64,000 nucleotides of DNA from Alphaproteobacteria bacterium (GCA_964291265.2 OZ219747.1:2176001-2240000); one strand, 5' to 3'; positions 16,881 to 62,555 are shown, counted from the stretch's first letter. Notes: generated by a model not told the origin, from the letters alone. Numbers and translations: made by a program.

Positions 16881-17219
16881 GAGACGTCCTGACCTCGTGA
16901 GCTGACTTGATCAGTCCGTCCCCACTTTTTCCCAGCACAATGAACGATTTGCCTGGTGTTGTGCTTGACAGCACAGTCGTGTTGCGGTCCAATACAATAT
17001 AATGCTGGTTATGGGATGATCCCGGCCTTGGACACGCTCGCGATGCACCCGCCTGAAGCCCTCCTGATCAGAACCGCGTGCTTCTCCCTTGCCGACATAG
17101 ACGGACCGATCGTCTCCTTCTCGAACTTGGTGCCCTTCGACTGCCAGACAACGCACGCAAACTCCGCCCAGAAGCATCACTCTGATTTGGAAACATCGAA
17201 GCCGATGTCAGGACATCTG
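16881..17219 (+). mobile_element. MITE / internally deleted derivative of the element at 18633-23434
   Basis: Left part homologous to 18633-~18900, right part to ~23365-23434; degenerate TIRs; perfect 5-bp TSD AGGTT (16876-16880, 17220-17224). Confidence 0.88.
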
Positions 17220-17239
17220 AGGTTGAGAAGAACGCTGTG

Positions 17240-17400
17240 CCGTTGTTGTGCGCACCCGGCGACCACTCGAGAGCTGCGGCAGATGGATCAGGTCGTGAAC
17301 CGCAAGCGCCTAGGTGAACCGCCAGTCGACCCGCGCCGCCGTGTCTTCACCCGGCCGATGGTATCATCGCTCCGTTTGAGGCGGATCCGGCTCGCCTGGC
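17240..17400 (-). pseudogene. Probable IS5-family transposase C-terminal remnant
   Basis: ARVDWRFT*ALAVHDLIHLPQL resembles IS5 transposase C-termini, with an internal stop. Confidence 0.4.
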
Positions 17401-19697
17401 AGGCCTTGCTCGCCGAAGTTCGAGCGTCGGCCCGCGGGGCTGCGCGCCACATGCGCCTTGGCGCCGAAGGCCCTGCAGGTCCTTACTGACGACCTCCGCC
17501 GTGTCATGGGCTCTGTCCGCTCAGGCGCTTCATCAGCGCACCGTCCCCCGGATGACTCTCGATACAGACAGGGTGCGGTGGCATCAACGCAATCAACGCC
17601 TGGCTCGGATCCGTCGTCGCCTTCGACCTCTCCTCACATGCGAGAAGGCAACTTGCAGGCTCACGCGCCTGTGCTGTCAAGCTTCCAAGGGATCAACAAC
17701 CCGCCGAACCCAGGACGGCGCCACCGCGACCAATGCCAGCACATAACTCGGATGTGGCGGCATACCCGGGCAGTGACGAATGAATGACCATCCATGATCT
17801 CGTGGAATGTCTGCGCATACCGCCTGCGGAGCCAGATATCGGCCCGATACCCATGTCGTTGTGGTCGCTCTCGTCCTTCGATGAGCCCGGCATGTCCCCG
17901 GATGTCACAATCCGTCGAGGAAATCCTGATCAAGACAACGGGGATACGAGAGACCATTGAACGTGTTGCGGTTGACAGGAGTGGCAAGACACAGCCCCTG
18001 ATCCTGCTACACGACCTCGAGGTAGCGTTCCCGCTCACTGGCGCTGACATGGCGGCGCATGCGCGCATCCTCGTGGAAACGCGTTGCCACGAAATGATCG
18101 ATGAAGGTGTCGCCGAAGAGACTGCGCGCCGCATGGCTCGCATGGAGGCGTTCCGCAGCCTCGGCGAGGCTGCGCGCAAGACGCGGAACGCCGCCTGGCG
18201 TGTCATCGGGTCCGCCCTCCGTGATGGGCATCGGCAGGGCCATGTCCCTCTCGATACCGTGAAGTGCCGCGCCAAGGGTCGCCGCAATGGCAAGGTAGGG
18301 GTTGGTGTCGGCGCCCGGAAGACGGAATTCGATGCGCGCCCGATCTGCCGGTGCGGGCACGGCCCGCACCGCCGCGGCATAGTTCTCGACAGCCCAGGTC
18401 GCCGTCTTCGGCGCCCAGTTTCCAGGCGCCAGGCGGCGGTATGCGTTGACGGTATGGGCCACCAGGGCGGTGAGGTCGCCGGTGAGTCCCACCACGCCGG
18501 CGACGGCCTGGCGCATGGTCGTGCTCATGGCATCCCTTGCTCCGGCGTCGTGGAACAGGGGCTGGCCGGTGGCGCTGTCGGCGAGCGAGAGGTGAACGTG
18601 TCCCGAGAGTCCGGGATGGAAGGCGCCAAACTCAGACGTCCTGACCTCAGTGAGTTGACTTGATCAGTCCGGCCCTCTTTTTTCCAACACAATGAACGCT
18701 TTTCCCAGTTTTTTGCTTGACACCATAGCCGTGGGGCGATCCAATATGATATGACGCCTATATTGGAGCATTCCAGGCCATGAACACGCTCGCAATGCAC
18801 CCTGCCGAAGCCGTCCAGATCGGAACCTCGTGCTTCTCCCTTGCCGACCTCGACGGACAGACCGTCTACTTCTCGAACATGGAGCCCTTCGACTGCCACG
18901 ACGAGGGCGACCGGCCGGCCATGCTGCTGCGGATCGCGAGGTTCGCCAGGCACGGCGTTCCTCAAAGAGACCTGCAGGCGGCCTTCGACGTGAGCCGCGC
19001 GACCGTGCAGCGGGCGGTGAGGAAGCTCCGGGACAGGGGTGAAGCGAGCTTCTACGAGCCACGCAAGGGCCGTGGTCTCAGCGTGATCACAGGCGAGACG
19101 GCAGCCGCGGCGAACCGTCTCCTGGCCGAGGGCATGAACGCCGCGGCACTGGCCCGGGAACTGGGGATCGCGAGATCGACGGCGTACTACAACCTCAGCA
19201 ACGGCTTCATCGGCGGCGGAGAGCGGCCGCAGGCGGCGCAAGTCGACGAGGCCACGCGATGCCCGGACGATCTTCTCGGCCGAGGCGAGCGGGACCGTCG
19301 CGACAGGGTCGCGCCGATGGGGCGCGGCGCGCGCGACAGCGCCGGGCGCGTCGCGGCTTCGACGGGAGCCATGAGCGAAGCGCCTCCGCACTTCGACGAG
19401 CCGCTCTCGGCGGTCGCCGGCGGCGGCGTCCTGGCGGCGCTGCCGGCGCTGCTGAAGGAGGGTCTCCTGGAGCACGCGGACAGGTTCCTGTCGCTGCCGA
19501 AAGGGTACTACGGGCTGACGAGCGTGCTTCTCATGCTCGCCTTCCTGTTCATGGCCCGGATCCGCAACCCCGAGGCGCTGCGCCACGAGGCGCCCGGGGA
19601 ACGGGGCGCGGTCCTGGGGCTCGACCGCTGCCCGGAGGTCAAGACGCTGCGGCGCAAGATCAGGGCGCTCGCGAGCGACCCGCAGCGGGTCCGGGAC

Positions 19698-22044
19698 CTT
19701 TCAAAGGATCGGACTTGTATAGGTGATTCGTTTCGTGCATGCTGCGGGCATGCAGGTTGGTCTCCGCCATTTCGATTCGCAGACGCTTGACTGGTTTGCC
19801 GGCGCGTTGCGCTCCGCCGACGCCACCCGTCACGGTCTGGCACGCGAGCTTTGCGAGCGCACCGGTTGGCGCAACGCGCTCGGCCGTCCGTGCCTGTCGG
19901 CGGCGGCGAAGGTGCTGCCGGCGCTCGCCGAGCGCGTGGGGTTCGAGCTTCCGCCGCCGCGGAGCGTGCCTGATCCGACCGTCGTGCCCGCCGTCCCGGC
20001 CGGTGAGGTCCCCGACACCAAGCTGGTCTGCCTGCTGGAGGATCTCGGCCCGGTCTCGCTCGAACCGGTGGGCGACGCCGACGATCGCCGTCTCTGGGAG
20101 GCGATGATGGCGACGCACCACCCGCTGGGATGGACGCGCTCGCCCGGCGGCCAGGTGCGCTACTGGATCCGCTCGCAGCGCCACGGCACCCTCGGCGGGA
20201 TCGGCTTCGGGTCCGCGACCTGGCAGCTGCGGGCGCGGGATGAGTGGATCGCATGGTCCGCCGACGCCCGTGCCGCCAACATCGAGCGTGTGATCTGCCA
20301 TCATCGGTTTCTCCTGCTTCCCGGCGTTCGGGTCTACGGACTGGCCTCCCGGGTCCTGCGCATGGCGGCGGAGCGCATCGCCGACGACTGGGAGGCCCGC
20401 TATGCGGTGCGCCCGGTGGCGGCCTACACTCATGTCGGTGCGGAGCACAGCGGCTATTGCTACCACTGCGCCGGCTGGACCGTGGCCGGGCGGACCAGCG
20501 GGCGCCGCGGCGAGGTTGGCACGGTGCGGGTCCTGGCCCTGGAGAGCGGCTGGCGGACGGTGCTCCACGGGACACAGCGCCGTCCACTCGGCGCCCTGGC
20601 GGGCGTCTATGACGGCACTGACGCGGACTGGGCGGAGCGGGAGTACGGGCGCACGCGCCATACCGACGGTCGGGTGCGACGACGCATCGTTGACATGGGC
20701 CGGGCCTGGATGAAGAACATGGGGGAGGACCTGCCGATCATCTTTCCCGAGAAGGCGGAGCAGAAGGCCGCTTATCGGTTGCTGTCGAACCCGAGGGTAT
20801 CCATGGAGCACGTTCTGGAAGCGCATGTTGAGGCGACCGTGGAGCGTTGTCGGACAGAGCCTCTTGTCCTTGCGATACAGGACACGACGGCGATCAACTA
20901 CAGCGGCCTGGAGGCCACGAAGGGTCTGGACAAGCTCGGCGGCGGTGGCAAGGGGAGCGTCGGCATCCTCGCCCACGCCGGTCTGGCGGTGACATCGGAG
21001 GGCCGGCCGCTGGGCCTGTTCACGATGGATGCGGCCTTCCGGCAGGAGCCTGGGGAGGACAGTCAGCGCTGGGTCACCGGGCTCGAGCGGGCCCGGGAGC
21101 TCGCGGCGGCCTGCCCGGACACGCGTGTGGTCTCGGTCTGCGACCGCGAGGGCGACTTCCGGGAACTGCTCGCCCATGCCGCGGACGCCGGGGCCGCGCT
21201 GCTGGTGCGTGCGAGCCGTTCGGCGAAACAGCGCGTGCGGACGCCCGACGGCAAAGAGACGTGCCTGTGGAAGCATGTCGCGGCCCGGCCGCTGGTCGCG
21301 GTGACGGAGCTGACGATCCCGGCCGCTGGCGGCCCGCGCGCCCGCAAGGAGCGCGTCGCCCGTCTCGAGATCCGCACGGCACAGGTCGAGGTGGCGCCGC
21401 CGCAAAAGGAGCGCGACGCGGAGCCTGTGTCCATGTTCGCGGTCTCGGCCAGCGAGGCCGGAACCGATGACGGCGACGAGGCCCTGCACTGGCTGCTGCT
21501 GACCACCGAGCGCCCGGCACCAGGGGAGGCCGAGGCCGTGCACGCGGCGACCGTCCTGGGCTGGTACCGGACGCGATGGAGCATCGAGACCTGGTTCCGC
21601 ACGCTGAAGACCGGGACCCGGATCAAGGACCGCCGGCTCGACAGGGCCGACGACCTGAAGACGTGCCTTGCCTTCGACGCCGTCACCGCCGTCCATGTTG
21701 CCGACCTGACCGTGCTTGCGCGCGAGCGTCCCTTGACCCCGGCGAGCGAGGTGTTTGCCGAGGAGGACATCGACCTGCTCGGCACGCTGCTGGAATCCCA
21801 GGGTCACCGGGAGGTCCGGGCGATGGGCGATGTCCGTGCCGTCGTCATCGGCCTTGGGCGCCTTGTCGGGTGGCATCCCACGCCGCGCCAGACGCTCCCG
21901 GGAGCGAAGAAGCTCTGGCAGGGTCTCGAAAGGCTGAACTGGGCGATCCAGGTGCGTGACGCACTTGGCGCAAGAAGGCGGCGCGAAGCACTCGGTGAGA
22001 GAAGGCGGGAGTAACATCCCTATACACGCGTGGGTGGTTGAAAG
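19698..22044 (+). mobile_element. IS4-family (IS50/Tn5-like) element
   Basis: Ends CTTTCAA...TTGAAAG; perfect 9-bp TSD GTCCGGGAC (19689-19697, 22045-22053). Confidence 0.92.
19750..22014 (+). CDS. IS4 transposase with N-terminal DUF4338 (DruA-like) fusion
   Basis: N-terminal ARDEWIAWS..RFLLLPGVRVYGLASRVL; C-terminal WAEREYG, IQDTT, CDREGD, YRTRWSIETWFRTLK (YREK). Confidence 0.88.
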   Translation: MQVGLRHFDSQTLDWFAGALRSADATRHGLARELCERTGWRNALGRPCLSAAAKVLPALAERVGFELPPPRSVPDPTVVPAVPAGEVPDTKLVCLLEDLGPVSLEPVGDADDRRLWEAMMATHHPLGWTRSPGGQVRYWIRSQRHGTLGGIGFGSATWQLRARDEWIAWSADARAANIERVICHHRFLLLPGVRVYGLASRVLRMAAERIADDWEARYAVRPVAAYTHVGAEHSGYCYHCAGWTVAGRTSGRRGEVGTVRVLALESGWRTVLHGTQRRPLGALAGVYDGTDADWAEREYGRTRHTDGRVRRRIVDMGRAWMKNMGEDLPIIFPEKAEQKAAYRLLSNPRVSMEHVLEAHVEATVERCRTEPLVLAIQDTTAINYSGLEATKGLDKLGGGGKGSVGILAHAGLAVTSEGRPLGLFTMDAAFRQEPGEDSQRWVTGLERARELAAACPDTRVVSVCDREGDFRELLAHAADAGAALLVRASRSAKQRVRTPDGKETCLWKHVAARPLVAVTELTIPAAGGPRARKERVARLEIRTAQVEVAPPQKERDAEPVSMFAVSASEAGTDDGDEALHWLLLTTERPAPGEAEAVHAATVLGWYRTRWSIETWFRTLKTGTRIKDRRLDRADDLKTCLAFDAVTAVHVADLTVLARERPLTPASEVFAEEDIDLLGTLLESQGHREVRAMGDVRAVVIGLGRLVGWHPTPRQTLPGAKKLWQGLERLNWAIQVRDALGARRRREALGERRRE

Positions 22045-24155
22045 GTCCGGGACTGGCAGGACGCGCTGGCGAAGGACTGGATCGCGGAGGCGCCGGATGT
22101 CTGCGCGACACTGTCGGTGGACGGGCACGTGAAGGTATATTCGGGCCGCAAGGGTCGCCTGCCGAAGCACTTCGTGTCACGTCAGAAGCTCTGTCTGCCG
22201 GCCTCGACAGGCTATTGGGTCAACGCGCTCGGCGGCCGGCCGCTCCTGTGCCTGCACAAGGACCTCGATCCGACCATGACGCACGCGCTGGAGCACGACA
22301 TCCTGCCCGCGCTGGAGCGGCTCGGCCTGCCGGGGCCGGACGCGCCGGACCTCGCCAGGGGAGAGGCGGTCGCGCCGGGGCTGACGCTGGTGTTCGACCG
22401 CGAGGGCTGGAGCCCGGCGCTGTTCGCCCGCCTCGCTCGGCGCGGGGTGGCGGTGATCACCTGGCACAAGGGGTTCCGGAGCGGTCCCTGGCCACAGGGA
22501 GAGTTCCGCACGGTCCGGGTGCCGCTCCACTCACCAGGTGGCGTCCGCACCGCCGAGGTGCGGCTCGCACAGAGACGGATCACGCTGTCCGGCGGGCCGC
22601 AGGTGCGCCAGATCCGGCGTCTTCTGGACAGCGGCCGGCAGGTGCCGCTGATCACCACGGACATGCACACGCCCATGGAGCGGGTCGCCGGCGCGCTGTT
22701 CTCGCGCTGGTCCCAGGAGAACTTCTTCAAGTCCATGCGCCAGGAGTTCGGCATCGACGCGCTGGCCGTGCACGGCCTTGTCGAGCAGGACCCCGAAGCG
22801 CGCGTCGTCCATCCGCACTGGCGCCGCTGCGACCGCCGCATCCGCCAGCTGCGCCAGAAGCTCGGCACACTGCGCAACCGCGTCGCCGACCTGCTCAAGG
22901 GCGCCCCGTCCGACACCGCCATCACGGCCGCCGCAACGCTGCAGGACAAGATCGTGACGCTCGACGCCGAGCACGAGGCGCTCAAGGTCCGGCGTGCAGA
23001 AATCCCGAAACATGTCACCGTGGCCGAGCTCGACGAGAACGACAGGCTCGACGCCCTGCCCTCCAGCGAGAGGCTGCTGCTCGACATCGTTCGCATGATC
23101 GCCTACCGCGCCGAAACCCGGATGATGGCCGCCGTCGCCCAGGCCCAGGGCGCAAAGCAGCGCCCGCGACGCCCTCTCGCCGAACTGTTCCAGTCGGACG
23201 CCGACATCATCCCCGATCAGGAAAACCGCGTCCTGCGGGTGCGCTTCCTCGGCACCGCCAGCAACGCGCGCGACGCCGACATCGCCGGACTGCTCGACGC
23301 ACTCAACCAGACGCGCACGACCTTCCCAGGAACCGACCTGCGCATGATCTACGAACTGCCAGACAACCCACCCAAACTCGGCCCAGAAGCATCAAACTGA
23401 TTGGACAAATTCATAGCCGAGGTCAGGACGTCTGAAGCTGGGCCATGAAACTCGCTGTCATGCCCTGGCGCCGCGCATGGGCCTTGGTCAGGGTCTTGAA
23501 GAGGACGGCATCGTCGGCGGCCTTCAAGGGGGCGCCTGCTTCGAGAGTCGCTTCGAAACAGCCGGGACCGAGTTCGAGCCCCAGGCTGAAGAGATCGATG
23601 CCTGCCGCGCAGACCCGCCCTTCGAGAGACGTCACGTAGTCGCCGTGGATGGTCGCCGACTGGCTGCCCCAGCAGCGGTTGTCGGCTGCGAAGAGTTCGA
23701 TTCCGTCGCCGAACCCGTTCGCGCGCAGGGATTCAGCCGTCTCCGTGAGGACGTGGAACTCGAACTCCATGGCCGCACGAACGGCGTATCCCGCATCGCC
23801 CGCGCGGGCGACCTGGTCGGCGAGCACCTGACGCGGACTCAAGGCACGGGACGGGCCGTCATAGTCGGCGAAGACGATGAACGAATCCTTCTCGAACGGC
23901 CAGTCGCGTACGCTCGTCCAGTCGAGGACGACAGGCTCGCCCACGAACGGTGGCGTGCCGGTCACTTCTTCGGCGATGTCCCACTTGTGGAGTACGTTGA
24001 CGAAGGTCCCGGATGCAGCAAACGTCGTTGCGATGTCGTCAAGCCTGAGGCGTCGACCCCGCAGGCTGCCATCGAGATCGGGAATGACGACATGACCGAT
24101 ACGCTTGCCTGCCTCGCGCAGCCGCGAAAGAACATCGTTCACTGACGATGGATGT

Positions 24156-24992
24156 TCAGCACCCGAGAGCACGGGCGTGGTGTTCAAAGTGATCGGCGAG
24201 AAAACTCTGGATGAACCAGTAGCTGTGGTCGTAGCCCTCGCGCATGTTGAGCGTCAGCGGTTGTCCGGTATCCTTGCAGGCGGCGGCCAGGGCGTCGGGA
24301 AGCAGGTTGGGAAGGAACTCGTCCTCGGTCCCCTGGTCGGCGAGGATCGGCGTCGTGCGGTGACCGGAGCGGATCAGATCGACGACATCGTAGCGCCGCC
24401 AGGTCTCCCGGTCATCGCCGAGGTAACGCTGCAAGGCGTCGCTCCCCATCTGGCAGCCCATGAGGGAATTCATCGGCGCCAGTGCCGAAACCGAACGGAA
24501 CATGCCGGGATTCTTGAGGGCAAGGGACAGTGCGCCATGGCCGCCCATGGAGTGCCCGAAGATGCTCATCCTCTGCGGGTCGCCGGGAAAGGCATCGGCG
24601 ATGACACCGGGAAGCTCTCGGATGATGTAGCTCTCCATGCGGTAGTGCCGGGACCAGGGTTCGACGGTCGCATCAAGGTAGAATCCCGCTCCCGTTCCGA
24701 AGGCCCAGTCGTCGTCTTCGCCTTCGATGCCGGTGTCGCGCGGGCTGGTATCGGGGGCCACCACGAGAAACCCGGCATCTGCTGCCAGGCGCTGGGCGCC
24801 GGCCTTGATGGTGAAGTTCTCGTCCGTGCAGGTCAGGCCCGACAGCCACAGGAGGATCGGCGCCCTTTCCTGCGACGCTGCCGCCGGCGTGAACACGGAA
24901 AATGCCATGGGAAGGCCGATTTCACGTGAGGCGTGCCGGTAGAACCCCTGCATGCCGCCGTGACACCGGCTGAGCGAGACGGTTTCCACCAT
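24156..24992 (-). CDS. fghA: S-formylglutathione hydrolase
   Basis: WLSGLTC, PDTSPR, GAGFYLDAT, GHSMGGHGAL, GYDHSY. Confidence 0.94.
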   Translation of the reverse strand: MVETVSLSRCHGGMQGFYRHASREIGLPMAFSVFTPAAASQERAPILLWLSGLTCTDENFTIKAGAQRLAADAGFLVVAPDTSPRDTGIEGEDDDWAFGTGAGFYLDATVEPWSRHYRMESYIIRELPGVIADAFPGDPQRMSIFGHSMGGHGALSLALKNPGMFRSVSALAPMNSLMGCQMGSDALQRYLGDDRETWRRYDVVDLIRSGHRTTPILADQGTEDEFLPNLLPDALAAACKDTGQPLTLNMREGYDHSYWFIQSFLADHFEHHARALGC

Positions 24993-24995
24993 GGG

Positions 24996-26105
24996 TCAGT
25001 AGATCACGACGCTGCGGATTGACTCACCCTCGTGCATCAGGTGGAAGGCGTCGTTGATACCCTCGAGTGGCATGGTGTGGGTGATCATGTCGTCGATGTT
25101 GATCTTTCCGTCCATGTACCAGTCGACAATTCTCGGCACGTCCGTGCGTCCCTTGGCGCCGCCGAAGGCCGTGCCCCGCCAGACCCGGCCGGTCACCAGC
25201 TGGAACGGACGGGTGGAGATCTCGGCCCCGGCAGGCGCCACACCGATGATGATGGATTCGCCCCACCCCTTGTGGGCGCATTCCAGCGCCTGACGCATGG
25301 TGGTGACATTGCCGATGCACTCGAAACTGTAGTCGGCGCCCCCTCTGGTCAGGTTCACGAGCCAGGGAACGAGGTCACCCTCGACCTCCTTCGGGTTGAC
25401 GAAGTGGGTCATGCCAAACGCCTTGCCGAGATCCTCACGTGCCGGGTTGATGTCGACGCCAACGATCATGTCAGCGCCGACGAGACGCAGGCCCTGGATG
25501 ACATTGAGGCCGATTCCGCCGAGACCGAACACCACGCAGTTGCTGCCCGGCTCCACCTTGGCAGTGTTGATGACGGCGCCGATGCCGGTGGTCACACCGC
25601 AGCCGATGTAGCAGATCTTGTCGAAGGGGGCGTCCTCGCGGACCTTGGCGACAGCGATCTCGGGAACCACCGTGTGGTTCGAGAACGTCGACGTGCCCAT
25701 GTAATGGAAGATCCTCTCCCCGCCGATCGAGAACCGGCTGGTGCCGTCCGGCATGACGCCCTGTCCCTGCGTCACCCTGATGGCCTGGCAGAGGTTCGTC
25801 TTGCCCGAGGTGCAGTACTCGCACTGCCTGCATTCCGGCGTATAGAGCGGGATGACATGATCGCCCTTCCTGAGACTCGAGACCCCCGGGCCGACATCGA
25901 CGACAACGCCGGCCCCCTCGTGACCGAGTATGGCCGGAAAGATGCCTTCGGGATCGGCTCCCGACAGGGTGAAGGCGTCGGTATGGCAGATGCCGGTTGC
26001 CTTGACCTCGACAAGAACCTCGCCTTCGCGGGGCCCTTCGAGGTCCACTTCCTCGATCGTGAGCGGCGCATCCGCCTTGTGGGCAACAGCAGCGCGGGTT
26101 TTCAT
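24996..26105 (-). CDS. frmA: S-(hydroxymethyl)glutathione dehydrogenase / class III ADH
   Basis: GICHTDAFTLSGADPEG, GHEGAG, TRPFQLVTGRVWRGTAFGG. Confidence 0.95.
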   Translation of the reverse strand: MKTRAAVAHKADAPLTIEEVDLEGPREGEVLVEVKATGICHTDAFTLSGADPEGIFPAILGHEGAGVVVDVGPGVSSLRKGDHVIPLYTPECRQCEYCTSGKTNLCQAIRVTQGQGVMPDGTSRFSIGGERIFHYMGTSTFSNHTVVPEIAVAKVREDAPFDKICYIGCGVTTGIGAVINTAKVEPGSNCVVFGLGGIGLNVIQGLRLVGADMIVGVDINPAREDLGKAFGMTHFVNPKEVEGDLVPWLVNLTRGGADYSFECIGNVTTMRQALECAHKGWGESIIIGVAPAGAEISTRPFQLVTGRVWRGTAFGGAKGRTDVPRIVDWYMDGKINIDDMITHTMPLEGINDAFHLMHEGESIRSVVIY

Positions 26106-26198
26106 GGCATCCTCCCGGTATCGTTGAACCGGATCATGGTGGCGGTGCGCCGGGGACAATGCAAGACGTGGATTCCATGAAGGAAGCCCGCTGCGTCC

Positions 26199-48560: not shown

Positions 48561-49142
48561 GGTTTCCCGGGGAGGCTGAGAGGCGCGTCGGGGTGAGACG
48601 TTCTCATTCCTGGATGGTAACGCGTGACCGCGTTCAAGGGTCTTGCGAGATTACGTGTCCCTTCCGTAGCCGCGTGGCGGTTCGATGTCCTCGAGAGCCT
48701 CGATGTCGGCATCGGCGACGCTCTGCAGGCGTTCTCCGTAAGGCGTGTCACGGAGGGTTTCGGGGATGCTGTCGAGGCGGTCACGCCATTCGTCCTGCAG
48801 GGTGCGGCAGGCGTCGAGTGTTTTCGGGCGGATGCTGCGACCTGTAAGCCAGTCCGGCCAGCGGCTGCGGCAGTCTCGTGATGCGGTGTCGTTTGGACGG
48901 CCCGGGGGTTTCCCGGGGAGGCTGAGAAGCGCGTCGGGGTGAGACGTTCTCATTCCTGGATGGTAACGCGTGACCGCGTTCAAGGGTCTTGCGGGATCAC
49001 GTATCCCTTCCGTAGCCGCGTGGCGGTTCGATGTCCTCGAGGGCCTCGATGTCGGCATCGGCGACGCTCTGCAGGCGTTCTCCGTAAGGCGTGTCACGGA
49101 GGCTTTCGGGGATGCTGTCGAGGCGGTCACGCCATTCGTCCT
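48427..49142. repeat. Tandem direct repeat (370 bp + 346 bp)
   Basis: 48427-48796 nearly identical to 48797-49142 apart from a 24-bp indel; GCAGGG at the junctions. Confidence 0.88.
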
Positions 49143-49287
49143 GCAGGGCGCGCAGTTCGGCCACGGCGTCGTTCCAGCGTTGCGGTCGCGAGCGCCGGTC
49201 ACGGTGCTTTGGGGTGTGGACGGGAGGGATGCCGGCCTTGCGCCGTTCCCGGTATCGCCGCTGCTTTTCGGCGGGCGTGAGGGGCAT
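48997..49287 (-). CDS. Small hypothetical protein
   Basis: MPLTPAEKQRRYRERR..PPRGYGRDT; AGGAG RBS upstream. Confidence 0.7.
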   Translation of the reverse strand: MPLTPAEKQRRYRERRKAGIPPVHTPKHRDRRSRPQRWNDAVAELRALQDEWRDRLDSIPESLRDTPYGERLQSVADADIEALEDIEPPRGYGRDT

Positions 49288-49313
49288 GAGTGGTCTCCTT
49301 GTGACGGACGTGG

Positions 49314-50207
49314 TCATGATCTCGCTTGTGGTTCTTTGGTCCTGGCGTTGACGACGTCGTTCCAGTCGGCGTTTTCCGGCGGTCTGCGTCTGTGGAACGA
49401 GACGTGGGAGGGGAGCTTCATCTTTTTGCGCAGGGTTTCGGCCTGTCGCTCTCCGGCCTCGTCGTGGTCCTGGGCGAGGACGATGGTCCTGACGTTGGGC
49501 AGGCTGCTTGCGGCGAGGCTGATCTGTTCGTGCTGTCTTCGCGAGGGTGCCCCGGCGGTGGAGAGGAAGGCGTGGCTGGGGGGACATTGGTCGATCTGGG
49601 CCAGGCTGAGGGCGTCGACGGCGCTTTCGGTGATGACGAGGGCCTCGAGGTCCGCGGCGGTTCCGGCGCGGACGGCGAACAGGCTTCGGGTTCCACCGGT
49701 GGCGAAGCGTTTCGGTCCGTCGGGGGGACCGATCTCGAAGCCGGTGAGCTTTCGCTTCCTGTTGCGATGGGCGAAGAGGACGCGTCCGTTGTGGTCGCGG
49801 CGGACCAGGGGGCGGCAGGTGTCGAGGGTCTCCGGGAGGATGCCGCGCCCGGTGAGCCAGTCCGGGGCCGCATCGGGCGTTGCCGCGGCCCAGAGGCTGC
49901 GGAAGTCGCGTGGCGCGGCGTCGGGTGCTGCGAAGCGGGTGCAGATGTCGGCGAAGGCCAGTCCGCGGTTGAGCATGAAGTCGATGACGGTTCCGTTGTC
50001 TTCATCGTTCTGGGTGTTGAAGTAGACCCAGTGTCCGTTGTTGAGGCACTTCGTGACGAGCTTCGGCAGGCCGGGTGCGCACAGGACGGGGTTGGCGCGT
50101 GTCGAGGCCTGTTCGTCGCGGACGTATCCCCAGTCGGCGGCGATGCGTTCGAACGGCATGCGCTTGACGGCGTCGAAGTCGACGCGGCGGGGTTTATCGG
50201 GTTTCAC
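49314..50207 (-). CDS. Toprim-domain / primase-like protein (DUF3991 + toprim architecture)
   Basis: NGTVIDF, WLTGRGI, ITESAVDALS, AQDHDEAG, DWND; start overlaps the istB end. Confidence 0.78.
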   Translation of the reverse strand: MKPDKPRRVDFDAVKRMPFERIAADWGYVRDEQASTRANPVLCAPGLPKLVTKCLNNGHWVYFNTQNDEDNGTVIDFMLNRGLAFADICTRFAAPDAAPRDFRSLWAAATPDAAPDWLTGRGILPETLDTCRPLVRRDHNGRVLFAHRNRKRKLTGFEIGPPDGPKRFATGGTRSLFAVRAGTAADLEALVITESAVDALSLAQIDQCPPSHAFLSTAGAPSRRQHEQISLAASSLPNVRTIVLAQDHDEAGERQAETLRKKMKLPSHVSFHRRRPPENADWNDVVNARTKEPQARS

Positions 50208-50895
50208 GCCTGAGCCGCCAGGAGTCGCTGTCGATGGAGATGAGGGTTGCGTCGTGCATGAGCCGGTCGACGGTGCCGGCGATGCCGGAGGCGCTGGGGA
50301 AGACGCGGTCCCACTGGGCGAAGGCGAGGCTTGTTGTGACCATGGTCGAGCGGCGCTGATAGCGCCGCGAGACGATGGCGTAGAGGATGTCGGCATGGTG
50401 GCTTTCGAGGGTCACGTAGCCGATTTCGTCGAGGACGAGCAGGCGGGGCCTGGCGAGGATCGCGAGGCGGCGGCGCAGCTCGCTGCGCGAGACGGTCTCG
50501 GCGAGTGCCTCGAGCAGTTCCGGCGCCTTCTCGAAGCGGACGGTGTGGCCGTGCAGCAGGGCCTGGTGCGCCACGTTGGCGGCGATCATGGTCTTTCCGG
50601 TGCCCTGCCCGCCGACGAGCACGGCGTTGTCCGCACGGTCGACGAAGCCGAGGCCGAGGAGCGCTTCGACATGAGCCCGGCTGATGTCGCGCGGCCATGT
50701 CCAGTCGAAGTCCGCCAGGGGCTTGAAGGCGGGCAGCCGCGCCGCGGCGCGGCGGCGCTCGTGGCTGCGGGCCCTGCGGGCCTGTTCCTCGCCGCTGACC
50801 ACCTCCTCGATCCATGCGGTCCCGGCGACCTCGTCCCAGCGTTCGACGAGCCCGTGGAGGCCGAGCGCCCGGGCACGCTCCCTGAGCTCGCTCAT
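50194..50895 (-). CDS. istB: IS21 helper ATPase IstB
   Basis: LADFDWTW, GGQGTGKT, LLVLDEIGY, VDRLMHDA, SWR. Confidence 0.92.
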   Translation of the reverse strand: MSELRERARALGLHGLVERWDEVAGTAWIEEVVSGEEQARRARSHERRRAAARLPAFKPLADFDWTWPRDISRAHVEALLGLGFVDRADNAVLVGGQGTGKTMIAANVAHQALLHGHTVRFEKAPELLEALAETVSRSELRRRLAILARPRLLVLDEIGYVTLESHHADILYAIVSRRYQRRSTMVTTSLAFAQWDRVFPSASGIAGTVDRLMHDATLISIDSDSWRLRRETR

Positions 50896-52385
50896 GTCTT
50901 GTTCCTGGCGCTGGCTTCGGGCCTGTCGTAGGCGTCGAGAGCGGTCCCCCGCGGCGTCGTGCCACGGCCGCCGCGGCCGTCGTCGGCGATGCTGAGGGGC
51001 GGCAGGCCCTGCTCCCGGCGGCGCTCCTCGATGATGACGCGCACGGTTTCGGGGTGGCACGAGCCGCGCTCCAGCGCCGTGGCGACAGCCCGGTCGAGAG
51101 CGTCGGCGCCGTGCGCGTTGAGAAGCGTCTCCAGCATCCGGGCGCAGGAGGCCACGTTGCGCCCGTTGGTCCCGGCGCGCGCCAGCATCTCCTCGGCCCG
51201 CGGCACGGTGCGCAGGACCCGGTCGCGGACGCTCATGGAGCGGGCCCGCCGCTTGCCCGCGGCGATCGCCCTGGCATGCTCCGGATCGGTGACGGCCTGC
51301 TTCCTGTCGTAGGAGCGTCGGTGGCGCGCGACCTCGTCGGCGCCGTCGAGGATGCGAACCTCGTCGCGGTCGGCGACCAGCGTCAGCAGGGCCTTGGAGA
51401 AGCTACCCGGAACGCTGTAGTCGTTGGTGTCGAAGCGGGCGTGGCAGGTCTTGTCGATGCGCACCGGGCGGACCTCGTGATGCGGGAAGGGGTCGACGGG
51501 AAGGACGATCAGGTGCTCCCTCTCCCGGGCGAAGGCGTCCCGCACCAGGAGACTGTCGTCGTCCGGCCAGGGCCGCTCCGCGGCGGCGCCGAAGCACCAC
51601 TCCCGAACTGCGGCGTTGAGCTCGCCGAGCGGGACCGTGATGTCGCGCCCGGCGAAGAACCCGGTGCGCGCGAAGCGCACACGGCGTTCCACGCGGCCCT
51701 TCTCCTGCGGGCTCCTGGGCCAGGCGGCGCTCGGTTCGAAGGCATAGTGGGCCGCGAGGCCGAGCAGCATCGGATGATAGGTGACCGCCTTGCCGCGGCG
51801 CGTCACCACGGCACTCTTCAGGTTGTCGTACAGAAGCCTCCGCGGCACACCCCCGAATGCCGCGAAAGCCTCGACATGGCCTTGCAGGAAGCTGGCCATC
51901 CGCGCGTCGTGGAACAGGCTCAGGACAGTCTGGCGCGAGTAGCTGAGGGTGACGAGAAGCCCCATGAGCCTGCGCTCCGCCCGGCCGATGCGGACCTTCC
52001 CGAACTCGGCCCAGTCAACCTGCGCCTGCTCGCCCGGAAGGAAGCTCAGCCGCAGCGACGGCTCGGGCCTCTTCACCGGCCTCAGCCCGAGGCGGCGCAG
52101 GTCGTGACGGAAGTGATCCTCGCCGCCGCGGTAGCCCAGAGCCACGACCTGTCGCCAGAGCGTGCTGGCCGGAAGGTCCGGCGACGCCTCAAGACGCTCC
52201 CCGAGGAAGGCAACGAAGGGGTCGATGAGCTTGGCCCGCGGCCGCCGCTCCTGCCCCGACGCCTTGAGCGCCCGCGTCACCGTGCCGTGGTGCACGCCGA
52301 GATGCCGGGCAATCGTCCCCACAGCCCAGCCCTCGGCCCGCGACAGCCGCACGATCGTCGCCCGCGTGTCCTCGTCGATCGCCAT
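50892..52385 (-). CDS. istA: IS21 transposase IstA
   Basis: N-terminal HTH; PGEQAQVDW, LYDNLKSAV, EKGRVER, FDTNDYSVP. Confidence 0.92.
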   Translation of the reverse strand: MAIDEDTRATIVRLSRAEGWAVGTIARHLGVHHGTVTRALKASGQERRPRAKLIDPFVAFLGERLEASPDLPASTLWRQVVALGYRGGEDHFRHDLRRLGLRPVKRPEPSLRLSFLPGEQAQVDWAEFGKVRIGRAERRLMGLLVTLSYSRQTVLSLFHDARMASFLQGHVEAFAAFGGVPRRLLYDNLKSAVVTRRGKAVTYHPMLLGLAAHYAFEPSAAWPRSPQEKGRVERRVRFARTGFFAGRDITVPLGELNAAVREWCFGAAAERPWPDDDSLLVRDAFAREREHLIVLPVDPFPHHEVRPVRIDKTCHARFDTNDYSVPGSFSKALLTLVADRDEVRILDGADEVARHRRSYDRKQAVTDPEHARAIAAGKRRARSMSVRDRVLRTVPRAEEMLARAGTNGRNVASCARMLETLLNAHGADALDRAVATALERGSCHPETVRVIIEERRREQGLPPLSIADDGRGGRGTTPRGTALDAYDRPEASARNKT

Positions 52386-52417
52386 GAACTCCCTCCCTTT
52401 GGTTCCTCAACGCCGCA

Positions 52418-52894
52418 TCACGGGTCCCTCAGCACCACATGCGTCACGACCCGTCCGCATCTGGCGCACCGAAGCGGCGATTCGCGCCGCTCTCGCGCCT
52501 TCACAACCGCAGGTAGGGAGGTCGGCAGCAGTCGGGAAGGGTGGTCCGTAACGATTTCTTCAGAACCGGCGTCTCCAGACACCGCCGGAACGTCGCCAAG
52601 CAGCACCACAGCAGACGTCTGCGTGTCCATGATCTCGGCAACCATCGCCGCCCTGGCCTTCAACGCACGCGCCTCCTCCGCCTTGCGGAGCCGGTAACGC
52701 CGCTGGCGGTGACGGCCCGTCTCACGGCCCTTCAGCGTGCTCTGGTAGCGACGACGCGACGCGCGGCGCCGCTCGATCCGGGACCGCTCCCTGCACTCCT
52801 TGGAGCAATACACATGCCCCCGGTCACACGACCGGCAGAGAACAACCTGCCGCTGACACCGCCTGCAGTTGAACAGTCGTCCTGTCGTGCACAC
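52418..52894 (-). CDS. Cys-rich basic (zinc-finger-like) protein upstream of istA; start uncertain
   Basis: CRRC..CRSCDRGHVYCSKEC, Arg-rich helix, C-terminal CARC. Confidence 0.65.
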   Translation of the reverse strand: MCTTGRLFNCRRCQRQVVLCRSCDRGHVYCSKECRERSRIERRRASRRRYQSTLKGRETGRHRQRRYRLRKAEEARALKARAAMVAEIMDTQTSAVVLLGDVPAVSGDAGSEEIVTDHPSRLLPTSLPAVVKARERRESPLRCARCGRVVTHVVLRDP

Positions 52895-53212
52895 CGTCCG
52901 TCTCGAGAGCGGGGGTGGACCCGGACGCAAAATGGCTCGACAATACACGGGAGTTCGGTCCCCCGTGACCGGCTCGTCCGGGTGCTGCGCCGGGGGGCGT
53001 CACAACTCCGCCCGGCATCGCATCGCTCTTTCTCTTGATGCCGATCTAGCATCCACCCGGGGCGGCGGCAAAGACGCCGCCCCGGGACCGGACAACGCGA
53101 CCCGCCCACAGGGAAGACAGACGATCCCGCGAGTGCCTCGGAACCGGAACCCTCCCGGCAACCGTCACCAAGACCGAAGCAGAGGTCGACGGAACCCGAA
53201 CCGGACCAAAAC

Positions 53213-53304
53213 GACAATAGGAAAAGACGGCGGCGCTCGGGGAGACAACCAGCCGAACACTCAAACCACGACAACAGGACGTGACAATAGGACCTGACAA
53301 CAGG
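53213..53304 (+). repeat. GACAAYAGG direct repeats, three at 13-bp spacing
   Basis: Copies at 53213, 53270, 53283 and 53296. Confidence 0.7.
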
Positions 53305-53899
53305 GAAGAAACACGACCCTGACAAAGCGCGGCAAATCGCCGAAATCCCGCCGTTCTATGCAGCCATCAACAGGTCAGGATGTCTGAACTTCTGGTCTTG
53401 GATTTTCGCGACGGTAACGGTGCATGCACAGGCAGTGAGCGGAACCACAGGGCTTTTCTTTTGTCGTCCCGGCGCTCGGCGCACGCAGGATTCTGGGGGT
53501 GGACATCCCGTTTTCGCCGTGGCAGTGTGCCGGCATGACGACGCTTGTGACCCCAGATTCCCCTATCGACCTTCACGAGGTGACGGTGCGCCCGACCCGT
53601 GGCGCACGTGAGCACCGGCTCTGGGATCGTCTGGTCAAGGAGCATCACTACCTGCGGTTTCACGGCATCATCGGCAAGGGCCTGCGCCATGTCGCCCTGC
53701 ACGGCGAGACCTGGGTGGCGCTGGTCGGCTGGCAGCCGGGCTCGTTCAAGCTTGCTGCACGCGACCGCTGGATCGGCTGGACTGCGGAGCAGCAGTTCCG
53801 GCGCCTGCATCTGATCGCGAACAATTCCCGGTTCGTCATTCTTGGCCCGAGGTAAGCGTTCGGCCACGCGGTGATTGTTGGTGATATTCACCGGTTGAG

Positions 53900-54195
53900 G
53901 ATGCGTTTGGGAGGCGCACCACGTGGCGGTTCGCTGTTGGGTCCGAAGACGATGGGTCCGGGTCGGGTTGCTCGTCGTTGGGGTGGCGGCAGGGTGATGA
54001 GGCCGTCGCGGTGCATGGCCAGAAAGGCGACATTCGCCATCATGTTCTTGAGGCCCCGTCGGGCTTGTATCAGCCGGTCTCGCGGCAGAAGGCGCGGGCG
54101 ATGGCCGCACGGGTGGGGTGCTGGGTGATCAGGGAGCGCAACAGCGCCATCTCGTGCGCGGTGAAGTCACGGCCGTCGTAACGGCACTCGATCAC
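53900..54195 (-). pseudogene. N-terminal fragment of a DUF4338-type protein inside IS66
   Basis: RYDGRDFTAHE..ARAFCRETG*YKPDG / LKNMMANVAFLAMHRDGLITLPPP; stop and frameshift; GTGA overlap with the tnpC stop. Confidence 0.6.
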
Positions 54196-55019
54196 CCCGG
54201 TTCCATGAGGTCCCGTCGGCGCTCCGGGGTCATCGACCATGGCAGCCACGGGTCGAGGTCATCCGGCGGCTTGCCGCCGTTCTGCGCGCAGGCCTCAAGC
54301 CACTCATGAAGCCAGCGCCGAACATTGATGTTGTTCATGGCAAGGGTGCCGATGACCGAGTACATGATGGCGGTGAAGGCGGCGCCTTCCTCGCTGTCGG
54401 AGCCGAAGCTCAGCTTTCTCGCGGTCACCGCACCCCGGAGGGTTCTCTCGGCCAGGTTGTTGTCCATGGGCACCTGGGGATGGTCGACAAAGACGCACAG
54501 TCCCTCGCGGTGACGGATCAGGGAACGCAAGGGCTTCGCTTCGCGTGCACCCTCGGGCAAGGCGTCGAGTTCCTCCTGAGCCTGCCTGAACAGCGCCTCG
54601 ACAGCCGCACGAAGGTCCTTCTGCAGGGCATTGAACCTCGCTGACTGACGCTTGCGTGCGGGATCGTAGTGCTTCAGCCGTTGCCCATTCAGTGTGTAGA
54701 TCAGCGCGATCCTGTCGAGCCACTTGTCGCACCACTCTTCCAGCCCCTCTTGGCCTGCCGCAGCCTCGATCACATCGCGCCTGGAGTGCGCCCAGCAAAG
54801 GCAGAGGATCACCTTGCCATCAAGCTCACGCTCCAGTTTCCTGTAGACCACGTAGCGGTCGCAGACAAGGAAGACGGTGCCTTCGGTGGAGGCGAACAGC
54901 ACCATGGCCACCCGGGTGCTGCGTGACGGGTCGATAAGGAAGAAGACGGAGTCGGCGCTGACCGCGGTCCACAGCCAGGCCTTCTGCGAGCGCCCCGAGG
55001 CCTTGAGGGACTGGATGCG

Positions 55020-56938
55020 GTGTGCCAGGCGAACTGGCGGAAGGTAGGGGGTGAAAGTCCCCTGAAACGAAGGAGTAACCAAACCACGTTTCTCCGCGAG
55101 CCGTGCGTCGGTTCCCGCGAGGGGGCAGGCGAAGCGTCGGTAGCGGTACGGATGGGCAGGGCTAATGAGCACCGAAAAGTCCGTTGTTCGGGGTGCCGAG
55201 GCTTTCGCATCGGTCGAAGGCAACATCGCAGGCATCGATTTGGTGAGATGTCGGCGAGCCCCGCGGTGTCGGAGAACCCATGCACGTCCGCACGCCTTCT
55301 GTTGGGACCCTGGGAGGTCTTCGAACTATCCCGCCTGTCGTGGCGGGACCGTGTAGGGAAAGGAGAAAGCCGAAGCCTATGAGGAACGGTTTGAAGAAGT
55401 CGGATGGGGCCGTAAGACCGGTGAAGGCGGCGAACAAGGGAGCGTCAGCTTCTGCGGAGTCGCTGGAGGAAAGGGCCTCAACCAAGGGGAATCCGGGACG
55501 CCAAAGCACGCACCGAACGCAGTGTCGGGCAAGTGTGCCACAGGCGGCGGACCGGATACGGGAAGCTGCAGAGAGGAACCCGAAGGAGCGTCTCACTGCA
55601 CTCTTCCATCACATTACGCCGGACGCGCTCCGGGCGGCCTACTTCGGTTTGAAGAAGGAAGCCTCGGCAGGTGTCGACGGCGTGACGTGGGCGGCGTATG
55701 GCGAGGGTCTGGACGAGCGCTTGCTTGATCTGCACTCGCGCCTGCATCGTGGGGGAGCGTACCGGGCGCCGCCGGTTCGGCGGGTTGAGATACCCAAGCC
55801 GGACGGCGGGACACGACCGCTCGGGATTGCCGCACTGGAGGACAAGATCGTCCAGAAGGCGGTTGTGGATGTGATCCTGACACCGATTTATGAGGTGGAG
55901 TTCCTTGGCTTCAGCTACGGGTTCCGACCGGGCCGAGGGGCGCATGACGCTCTCGACGCCCTGGCGTTCGGGATCGAGCGGCGCAAGGTCAACTGGATAG
56001 TCGACGCGGACATTCAGGGGTACTTCGACACAATCCCGAGGGATTGGTTGATCAAGTTCCTGGAGCATCGCATTGGCGACAGGCGGGTGATCCGTCTGAT
56101 CCGCAAGTGGCTGAACGCTGGCGTCATGACCGACGGATCATGGAGCGACACCGGTGCGGGCACGCCTCAGGGCGCCATTGTCAGCCCCTGCCTGGCGAAC
56201 GTGTTTCTGCACTACGTGCTCGATCTGTGGTTTCACAAGGCATGGCGTCCGAAGGTTCCGAACGGTAAAGCGATCATTGTCCGCTACGCGGACGATATTG
56301 TGGTCGGGTTCCAGCATAAGCGGGATGCGGAGACATACCTTCGCGACGTTCGGGAGAGGCTGGACCGCTTTGGTCTCACCCTTCACCCGGACAAGACCCG
56401 TCTCGTTGAGTTTGGACGGTTTGCCAAGGCGAACCGGCGATCTCGCGGGGCGGGCAGGCCGGAGACGTTCGACTTCCTGGGCTTCACGCACTTCTGCACG
56501 GAGACCCGGAGAGGACGCTTCAGGCTTGGTCGCAAGCCGGTCGCAAAACGGGTCGCAAGGACCCTGGCGCGCATCGAGGAGGTGCTTCGCAATCGACGGC
56601 ATCACGACATATGGGAGGTCGGCATGTGGCTTGGGCGAGTTGTCAATGGCTGGTCCAACTACTTCGCCGTTCCGGGGTCGACCCGATGGCTGCGCACGTT
56701 CCGCCAAAGGCTGCAACGCCTATGGCTGCGAGCGATCCGCCGCCGCTCCCAGCGCCACTGCTTTGACTGGAAGCGATTGGAGCGCATGACCGAGCTTCTT
56801 TGGCCGCGCGTCTCCATCCGCCACCCATGGCCGGACCAGCGGTTTACCGTCAAGCACCCGAGGTAGGAGCCGGATGGATTAACGTCCATGTCCGGATCTG
56901 TGCGGGGGGTGCGCAGCAATGCGCATCCCTACCGCGAC
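55020..56938 (+). mobile_element. Full-length bacterial group II intron (1919 nt)
   Basis: 5' GTGTG, 3' CCCTACCGCGAC; domains V/VI at ~56866-56938; no TSD; flanks rejoin tnpC exactly. Confidence 0.95.
55535..56866 (+). CDS. ltrA: Group II intron reverse transcriptase/maturase, no endonuclease domain (start uncertain)
   Basis: GVDG, IPKPDGGTRPLGI, SYGFRPGR, DADIQGYFD, GTPQG, RYADD, FDFLGF, GWSNYF. Confidence 0.95.
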   Translation: MPQAADRIREAAERNPKERLTALFHHITPDALRAAYFGLKKEASAGVDGVTWAAYGEGLDERLLDLHSRLHRGGAYRAPPVRRVEIPKPDGGTRPLGIAALEDKIVQKAVVDVILTPIYEVEFLGFSYGFRPGRGAHDALDALAFGIERRKVNWIVDADIQGYFDTIPRDWLIKFLEHRIGDRRVIRLIRKWLNAGVMTDGSWSDTGAGTPQGAIVSPCLANVFLHYVLDLWFHKAWRPKVPNGKAIIVRYADDIVVGFQHKRDAETYLRDVRERLDRFGLTLHPDKTRLVEFGRFAKANRRSRGAGRPETFDFLGFTHFCTETRRGRFRLGRKPVAKRVARTLARIEEVLRNRRHHDIWEVGMWLGRVVNGWSNYFAVPGSTRWLRTFRQRLQRLWLRAIRRRSQRHCFDWKRLERMTELLWPRVSIRHPWPDQRFTVKHPR

Positions 56939-61102: not shown

Positions 61103-62555
61103 CTTTCAACCAGACACTGTTGAATCCATCTTTTTCAGCATATCGAGTTCCTGCAGTTTCCGCATATTTCGGTGATGTTCGACGAAGGTGAGGAGGATTT
61201 CGTATCCCTGCCAGAGTTTCTCAGTCCCCGGCAGGGGTTGACGTTTTCTGGGAATGAAGCCCGCCAGGCGTGCGACGTCGACGGCGAAGGCTGCGATGGT
61301 CGGTTCGGGATCGGGAGGTCCACGCGGCGTGCGCTGTCGGCTGACCTTATAGATGTTCAGGACCGTGATCTCGTCGCGGTGGACGATGTGGCTTGCCGGG
61401 GTGTCTGGTGCCGAGCGTGCGAGGCGCTCGACGGTCATGACGCGGCATGCGGTGATGGCGTCGAAGGCCAGACACTTCCTCAGATCGTCGACCTGGTTGA
61501 GGCGCCGGTCCTTGATCCGGGTGCCGACCTTCAGGGCCTTGAAGTACTCTTCGATCCACCATCGCCTCTCGTAGAAGGAGACGGTCTTGAGGGCATCGTC
61601 TGCGGTGACGTCGCCTTCGGTGGTGAGCAGCATCCAGTCGAGAGGATCGCGGCCTGGCGGTGGGGCGGGTTCCGTGACCCGCACGGCCATCATGGAGAGC
61701 GGCGGCGTTGTCTGAGGCTTCTTGTCCGGCGGAGCCAGGTCGACCCTTGCCGCACGGACTTCGAGGCGTACGCCCTTGCGCTCCTTGCGACGACGCGGCC
61801 CTCCGCAGGCCGCGATGTCGATCTGCTTCGTTGCGATGCACGGCTCGTCCGCCATGTAGTCCCAAAGGTCCCGGCAGGCGCCCGTTGCGGTGACCACGCG
61901 GCGCCGTGTCGAGCGCCTGACGCGCACCAGCAGACCGGCCTCGTGCTCCGGGCCAGCAGGTCCCAGATGTCGCCTTCACGGTCACAGATCACCAACACCC
62001 TTGTCGAAGGACAGGCAGCGGCCAGTTCCACGGCCTTGTCGTACCCGTCGAGCCAGCGCCGGCTCTCCTTGTCGTCTGGCTCGTCCTTCTTCTGATCCGG
62101 CTTGAGACGGAAGTCGGCGTCGAGATGGAACAGGCCGAGGGATGAGCCGCCTTCGCTGAAGGCAACCCCGGCATGGGCCGCCATGCCAAGGGCGCCCGAG
62201 CCGCCGCCGCCGATGTCAACAAGACCCTTGGTCGCCTCCAAGCCATTGTAATTCAAGAACGTCGTGTCCTGGATGGCAAGAATCAGGCGCTGCGAACGGC
62301 AGCGTTCCACCATCGCTTCCTGGTGCCCCTCAAGGATATGCTCCATCGTCACCCTCGGATTTGACAACAGGCGGTAGGCCGCCTTCTGCTCCGCCTCGCC
62401 GGGGAAGATCACCGGCAGGATCGCGCCGGGACGATCGTTCCACGCCCGGCCCATGGTGACAAGGCGCTCGCGGATGCGCACGTCACTGTGGCTGCTGCGG
62501 GCGTACTCCCTCATCGCCCAGTCGGTCCTGTCATCACCGACAAGGGGCGCCGCCT
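61103..62555 (-). pseudogene. Second IS4-family transposase, frameshifted near 61950 and interrupted at 62556
   Basis: IQDTT, CDREGD, YERRWWIEEYFKALK; end CTTTCAA at 61103. Confidence 0.85.

Follow-up and report, generated by a model that had tools for sequence, protein, structure and literature searches.

A DUF4338 domain borne by insertion sequences of several families, with a predicted GNAT fold resembling phage Mu Mom

Why should an insertion sequence (IS) carry, ahead of its transposase, a domain labelled as a Druantia defence protein? The question is raised by the window analysed here, a stretch of 64,000 nucleotides from an alphaproteobacterial genome, in which a complete IS50/Tn5-type insertion sequence (lineage A) lies at 19698-22044 on the plus strand, bounded by imperfect inverted repeats (CTTTCAA...TTGAAAG) and a perfect 9-bp target duplication (19689-19697 and 22045-22053). 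Its 754-aa fusion ORF (19750-22014, plus strand; ATG start, frame open from 19723) runs from a helical domain through a DUF4338/DruA GNAT domain to a Tn5-type DDE transposase; the Pfam DruA match (PF14236, E 5e-24) stands upstream of the Tn5-type Tnp_DNA_bind and DDE domains, and a score of 272.5 bits against NF033590 (cut-off 160) places the protein in the IS50/Tn5 subgroup of the IS4 family. With that subgroup it has in common the DNA-binding, DDE and dimerisation domains, the short inverted repeats and the 9-bp duplication; it differs by about 290 extra N-terminal residues, none of which IS50 itself is known to possess. The DDE triad (D378, D465, E613) is kept in 103, 101 and 96 of 104 homologs, respectively. 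In the predicted model, residues 1-72 (19750-19965, plus strand) form three helices and a hairpin that, judged by eye, look like a winged helix-turn-helix, and residues 100-275 (20047-20574, plus strand) form the GNAT domain, which retains H124, R186, S200 and Y238 and has P125 and G230 at the positions corresponding to the iron ligands of the phage Mu protein Mom.

Lineage A is represented in the genome by nine near-identical copies, eight of them with perfect 9-bp duplications, and the copy at 19698 interrupts a Transposase_29 (PF21804) element (18632-23435, plus strand) of which eight empty copies occur elsewhere in the genome. A second, incomplete relative of this poorly described family lies just upstream (16956-17489), and genes resembling those for glutamine synthetase, S-formylglutathione hydrolase and class III alcohol dehydrogenase, recognised by translation only, sit alongside at 23423-26159. 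The other lineage-A copy in the window (62556-64000, plus strand; ATG 62608) is cut by the window end and intact in the genome; it is 98.6% identical to the first and has inserted exactly between the GNAT and transposase parts of lineage B, a further IS50-type fusion lineage (50% identical) whose transposase half occupies 61103-62555 on the minus strand and whose GNAT half, parted from it by the insertion, lies beyond the window. An N-terminal fusion of DUF4338 to an IS4-type transposase in two copies (19750 and 62608), as the initial annotation had it, is thus borne out by the PF14236 and NF033590 matches. A metagenome search confirmed no relatives of the lineage-A window protein.

The same annotation placed a like fusion on an ISAs1 transposase at 53535-59478, and the fusion itself is there, but not as a single open gene, since it is split by an IS66-family element that is itself split by an intron. 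The ISAs1-family element (lineage G; 53448-59691, plus strand) has inverted repeats and a 10-bp target duplication, and its fusion gene persists in the window as two pieces, 53535-53851 and 57994-59478, with intact copies elsewhere in the genome, on one of which the ISAs1 transposase was scored (NF033564, 204.9 bits; cut-off 70). It shares with the ISAs1 family the DDE_Tnp_1_assoc and DDE_Tnp_1 domains, CAGG ends and the 10-bp duplication, and differs in its N-terminal GNAT, which comes without the helical domain. The interrupting IS66-family element (53852-57993, minus strand; GTAAGCG ends, 8-bp duplication GGCCCGAG) sits inside the GNAT/DruA domain of the fusion gene, carries tnpC only, and holds, antisense within tnpC, a group II intron (55020-56938, plus strand) with an RT/maturase gene at 55280-56866. 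Its PF03050 transposase, GTAA ends, 8-bp duplication and freedom from tnpA and tnpB match the tnpC-only organisation of IS66 (ISBst12 group); the canonical three-gene IS66 layout, with tnpA and tnpB upstream of tnpC, was not found, and in an uninterrupted 2,224-bp copy the tnpC frame begins 80 nt from the end. The full element differs from a tnpC-only IS66 in adding a Mom-like gene after tnpC, and deletion derivatives revert to tnpC-only. An N-terminal segment had also been reported to follow tnpC, and it does (53888-54195, minus strand), yet it is what remains of a stand-alone gene belonging to this same family and contains no DUF4338 domain. Of that separate gene, which encodes 288 aa, only the N-terminal domain is left, or the first ~97 codons, disrupted by a frameshift and by a stop at codon 42; the GNAT was lost by a 558-bp deletion. 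Of the "three unrelated IS families" once proposed as carriers, IS66 is indeed distinct, whereas "unrelated" is too strong for IS4/IS50 and ISAs1 because both have the DDE_Tnp_1 fold.

Several other mobile elements were seen in the course of this work. One group II intron family hits IS66 at two sites, tnpC position 1055, where it is the full RT-encoding form in antisense, and position 271, where about a dozen copies of a 660-nt RT-less derivative lie in the sense direction; several copies also have an IS110 element placed 8 nt in from the 5' end of the group II intron. An IS21-like element of ~5.3 kb (window 48970-53372, minus strand) carries istA, istB, a Toprim/DUF3991 gene and a small Cys-rich ORF, and with 39-47 occurrences of its ends is the commonest element in the genome.

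How common, then, is the pairing of domain and transposase? An iterated profile search of the genome gave 116 hits at 100 loci, including 53 whole domains, 32 of which run in frame into a transposase-length tail, and a separate check with the Pfam DruA family found 85 matches here and none in 14 control genomes, so that this abundance is not chance. Ten lineages are present, namely six IS50-type (one known from degenerate copies only), one other IS4, two ISAs1 and one IS66 partner gene, and the domain lies directly upstream in 63 of the 72 IS50/IS4/ISAs1 transposase starts found in the genome; the nine others comprise six split by nested insertions and three fragments. Farther afield, the profile matched 13,158 representatives (clusters at 50% identity) at E 0.001 and 7,582 at 1e-10. 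The best 150 representatives include 95 longer proteins; domain architecture was scanned in 81 of these, and 58 of the 81 bore a transposase domain: 39 Tn5-type, 12 other DDE_Tnp_1, 4 IS66 with the module fused C-terminally, and one each of IS630-type DDE_3, ISAzo13 and ISAs1-associated. The module is found fused to at least six transposase families. The window protein was matched in 10 of 40 related genomes and the Pfam family in 15 of 200 genomes sampled from the phylum, where the loci retrieved comprised IS66, ISAs1 and IS50 contexts together with four long proteins of true DruA type. Among annotated phages there was no match to the domain, and among 72,556 plasmid records there were two, both from Candidatus Thiodictyon. 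In one Candidatus Thiodictyon sequence (NZ_CP020372.1; L158:3980-7182) an integrase and an IS91-family transposase directly follow a stand-alone DUF4338 gene, a neighbourhood that hints at a link to a non-DDE element. As a separate curiosity, the lineage-H ISAs1 transposase (L007:475-2577; G000:C2:3249774-3251876) contains a tandem 8-aa repeat in its DDE region, whose copy number varies by 24-nt indels between copies.

The partnership is also old. A tree of 32 domain sequences groups them by transposase family (support 100/100 for ISAs1, 100/100 for the IS66-downstream genes and 100/99 for IS4, with IS50 in two clades), and in 36 IS50-type fusions there are 11 GNAT splits with good support, ten of which are found again in the tree of the transposase, with no conflicts, while GNAT and transposase distances correlate at 0.89, the GNAT being the slower (ratio 0.80). 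GNAT and transposase have co-diverged, and with trees and distances concordant the partnerships are here old and co-inherited rather than recent captures. A stable association with several transposase families is upheld by tree, domain scan and co-divergence alike: the pairing is real, conserved and widespread, and these are IS elements with a putative accessory enzyme.

The literature searched yielded no description of a DUF4338 or Mom-like domain linked to insertion sequences, two likely sources from the Aravind laboratory falling outside the search. Iyer et al. are said to survey Mom homologs in mobile elements (2009, Cell Cycle; 2013, NAR) and may pre-empt the IS link. DUF4338 is called a GNAT, in DndF fusions (PMC10853773), Mom systems are described without transposases in passages of PMC7824862 and PMC4738411, and DruA-like phage proteins are noted (10.1101/2025.08.05.668817); a term search of PMC13639185, PMC12458937 and 10.64898/2026.05.13.724313 returned nothing relevant.

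What kind of enzyme might this be? A GNAT/Mom-like fold had been suggested, and it is now supported by both structure searches made with predicted models. The window domain (pLDDT 84) and an IS66 partner (pLDDT 92) are both modelled as GNATs, and VIA-align ranked Mom (8bv8) first of 48,161 chains for each (Z 15.1, rmsd 2.8, 156 aligned, next chain 13.2; and Z 14.9, rmsd 3.2, 163 aligned, next chain 12.3), both searches being dominated by the GNAT part of the models. Foldseek put Mom 24th by E-value, after spermidine acetyltransferases, yet with the best query TM-score among the matches listed. Sequence comparison is fainter: profile-profile alignment gives only a weak match to Mom (probability 6.8%, E 0.005, 48 columns); the PHROG "Mom-like DNA modification protein" was matched by all nine lineages scanned at E values up to 1 (best 5e-5); Pfam Mom (PF25680) reached two homologs at 25.9 and 27.6 bits (cut-off 27.1), with no stretch passing alone, and did not match the window proteins; and a nine-lineage profile run against the sequences of solved structures returned nothing meaningful. 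A viral library gave mainly uncharacterised phage GNATs, several of them on endonuclease-like proteins and one named Mom. The domain is thus predicted to adopt a GNAT fold with Mom as its closest structural match.

The fold is accompanied by counterparts of several Mom residues. Karambelkar et al. described six functional residues in Mom, with a numbering that agrees with the Mom sequence fetched here, and described R101 as Mom-specific and likely substrate-binding (10.1101/861617). Counterparts of H48, R101 and S114 are nearly invariant, in 148, 149 and 146 of the best 150 representatives, all distant, where S114, D139 and Y149 were equated by hhalign and H48/Y49 by MAFFT, and the R101 equivalence is drawn from motif and strand position, MAFFT having placed it differently. 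Those of Y49, D139 and Y149 are mostly kept in the stand-alone, IS4 and ISAs1-G versions. In lineage A, H48, R101, S114 and Y149 have counterparts in 104, 103, 104 and 103 of 104 homologs, but Y49 is replaced by P in 101 (P125 of the window protein) and D139 by G, A or S in 100 (G230), so that the 754-aa window protein has lost two of the six Mom residues, namely both iron-ligand positions. Among the best 150 representatives, Y49 is kept in nine of 39 Tn5-type fusions, nine of 12 IS4, all four IS66 fusions and 37 of 55 short proteins; within the genome, lineages G and E, like the IS66 partner gene, retain all six positions, Y49 and D139 included, and lineages C, D, F and H are missing the tyrosine at Y149. 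The Tn5-type fusions, the window protein included, therefore have altered Mom iron ligands, a new observation, and the mark they make would likely be another or a weaker one, unless they do no more than bind. The IS domains also differ from Mom in being only 12-15% identical to it, in an extra RDxWIGW insertion and N-terminal helical domain, and in being borne by insertion sequences, often fused to the transposase.

The IS66 elements offer a natural experiment on what the domain is for. In the genome, 33 copies bear the start of the partner gene, and 27 of these are missing the GNAT core through two independent deletions, one of 558 bp that removes the whole GNAT (20 copies, two with a further small deletion and one interrupted) and a separate one of 513 bp at a 7-nt microhomology (seven copies); the remaining six are four full-length copies, two of them open, and two truncated ones. 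Perfect 8-bp duplications flank 18 of the 22 deletion copies with both ends paired, and median identity is 99.8% for 16 copies of the 558-bp deletion against 97.7% for full-length IS66, so that GNAT-deleted copies are the most numerous and youngest in this genome, which is likewise new. The GNAT is accordingly not needed in cis for IS66 copying here, because copies without it multiplied with perfect duplications, and the idea that it marks the element's own ends in cis is weakened as a required role. Elsewhere the gene is held fast: in four related genomes the whole partner gene was kept in 18 of 19 fetched tnpC loci, the 19th being a tnpC fragment, and the Mom-like gene tightly adjoins the 3' side of tnpC in 75 of the 76 loci found with one. 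A gene retained across genomes and yet lost within one is what would be expected if its benefit were reaped between hosts or in trans, although the deletions were seen in a single genome and a self-limiting regulator fits their pattern equally well. Since one IS family kept multiplying after GNAT loss, the GNAT probably serves as an aid, either shared or of use on a change of host, and not as a component of the transposition machinery.

The reading that I favour, while giving it somewhat less than an even chance, is that a Mom-like, DNA-modifying GNAT on IS elements shields element DNA from restriction upon a change of host, or acts in trans. From fold to function I infer each step: the GNAT fused to or beside the transposase, predicted to fold like Mom, would bind CoA and take DNA as its substrate, and so would likely use acetyl-CoA to modify adenines; the adenine mark would shield element-bearing DNA from restriction on entry into a new host; and the function could probably be supplied in trans. 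Restriction pressure is plausible because the host genome encodes a DruE-like helicase and, at two loci, DISARM-like drmA/drmB (L162:10905-15161, L163:9746-15087, L164:1839-11154), one of these two with a DrmMI/type IIG methylase. However, with the transposase scarce, a domain joined to it could mark only a small amount of DNA, and the very fact of fusion to the transposase points to a local role. Mom overexpression is toxic (10.1101/861617). Six-mer depletion in the genome followed the usual palindrome avoidance, with no motif attributable to the enzyme. A bolder version, which I consider possible but doubtful, would have an IS family of 13,158 clusters at 50% identity write its own Mom-type mark as a public good, with "cheater" IS66 elements, amid donors that saturate the genome, deleting the enzyme twice independently and outgrowing the full elements, and Tn5-type fusions re-tuning the chemistry. 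If the domain does modify DNA, insertion sequences would encode a base-modifying enzyme on a large scale and offer abundant material for the study of Mom-type chemistry, for which this genome holds matched natural variants in full versus GNAT-deleted IS66 and in iron-ligand-intact versus altered fusions.

The same IS66 data suit a rival nearly opposite in sense, one that I would call unlikely and still take seriously, whereby the GNAT marks or binds the ends or promoter of its own element and damps transposition, its loss producing a burst and an evolutionary dead end. Dam methylation damps the transposition of IS10 and IS50 in just this manner. The abundance and youth of the GNAT-less IS66 copies would follow, as would the fact that a 600-codon tnpC without interruption survives in just two copies, both with a GNAT deletion, and N-terminal fusion with the extra helical domain would tether the GNAT to its element. 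Yet the ends of the ten lineages have, by eye, no obvious motif in common, the ISAs1 fusions do without the helical domain, and no GNAT-less in-frame derivative has spread in the fused lineages, in which 63 of 72 transposase starts are preceded directly by the domain and six of the nine exceptions are nested splits.

Rather unlikely, in turn, is that the domain acylates proteins or small molecules, or is a catalytically dead acetyl-CoA sensor, with the transposase or a host factor as its target, and so ties transposition to metabolism. Generic GNATs do come next in the structure searches at Z 12-13, the CoA-contacting Ser is kept where the iron ligands of the Tn5-type fusions vary (Y49 in 9/39), at least six transposase families have been joined to the domain, and a DUF4338 GNAT-DndF fusion is suggested, perhaps, to target proteins (PMC10853773). 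Against this, Mom leads the other GNATs by ~2 Z units with either model, H and R of Mom type hardly ever vary, and all six positions are mostly kept in the stand-alone, IS4 and ISAs1 versions.

Could the domain instead be what its label says, a Druantia-like anti-phage cargo that benefits the host? In Druantia type I, DruA is encoded in a druA-E operon. DruA proper (PF14236, PADLOC PDLC00001/2) and the IS-borne domain belong to one Pfam family and are homologous, with common G..lRY and RD.WI.W motifs (E 1e-11 to 1e-13), and the genome does have a DruE-like helicase gene. However, the DruA1 model, which reaches E 1e-179 to 1e-210 in three other genomes, has no match at E 1e-30 in this one, where the best IS-borne domain scores E 3e-6; the single DruE-like gene lies ~16 kb from the nearest copy; no druA-E operon surrounds the IS-borne copies, which lie inside IS ends; and the domain has co-diverged with transposases. 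Furthermore, DruA proper is a protein of 400-700 aa with other active-site residues, and it is without the H, Y, R and S positions of Mom, that is, most of the Mom residues, the motifs before strand 4 being common to both; this, too, is new. An adenine mark without a known methylase is reported for Druantia type I hosts (10.1101/2024.04.14.589459) and could be taken to favour such cargo; as support for DNA modification it was given little weight because the DruA active site differs. A Druantia-type defence role, as earlier proposed, is thus not supported for want of a druA-E operon and of a shared active site, and I regard it as very improbable. Most DUF4338 matches examined are in insertion sequences, and defence annotation by DUF4338 can therefore mislead.

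Least of all, and with next to no probability left to it, could the domain be neutral hitch-hiking or decayed cargo, as fewer than half of the profile hits being whole (53/116) and its shedding by IS66 might suggest, since it is conserved as strongly as the DDE core (104 homologs), evolves more slowly than the transposase and is under purifying selection, with pN/pS of 0.14 for the GNAT (10 N, 26 S; p 1e-8), 0.27 for the N-terminal part and 0.20 for the transposase (22 open-frame copies in five lineages, somewhat biased by the choice of open frames and by gene conversion) and a median dN/dS of 0.18 for the IS66 partner genes (231 pairs among 22 genes, 21 picked from the 76 loci and one from the present genome). 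The comparison of copies that had been suggested at the outset consequently speaks for selection and not for neutral decay.

Shared frameshifts were considered as proof that GNAT-broken fusions transpose, and were rejected, because they are a recurrent scar, found at one and the same codon in each of three lineages, in copies that are mosaic. The scar is itself worth recording: two nucleotides are replaced by TGA or TAA, nearly always then followed by G. It accounts for 46 of 123 distinct 2-to-3-nt replacement rows, or ~29 sites when merged by eye, 26 of them with G next, and seven sites are in GNAT domains, which make up 4.4% of repeat bases. Examples are C2:575020, 902380, 903080 and 1441405, homologous to window positions 20348 and 20412; the codon struck in three lineages comes immediately after the conserved Ser, and one scar recurs in a contig of run X2. 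TAAG and TGAG correspond to the two ends of a 5.16-kb integrase-plus-ATPase element, and my guess is that the scar is the footprint of abortive transposition.
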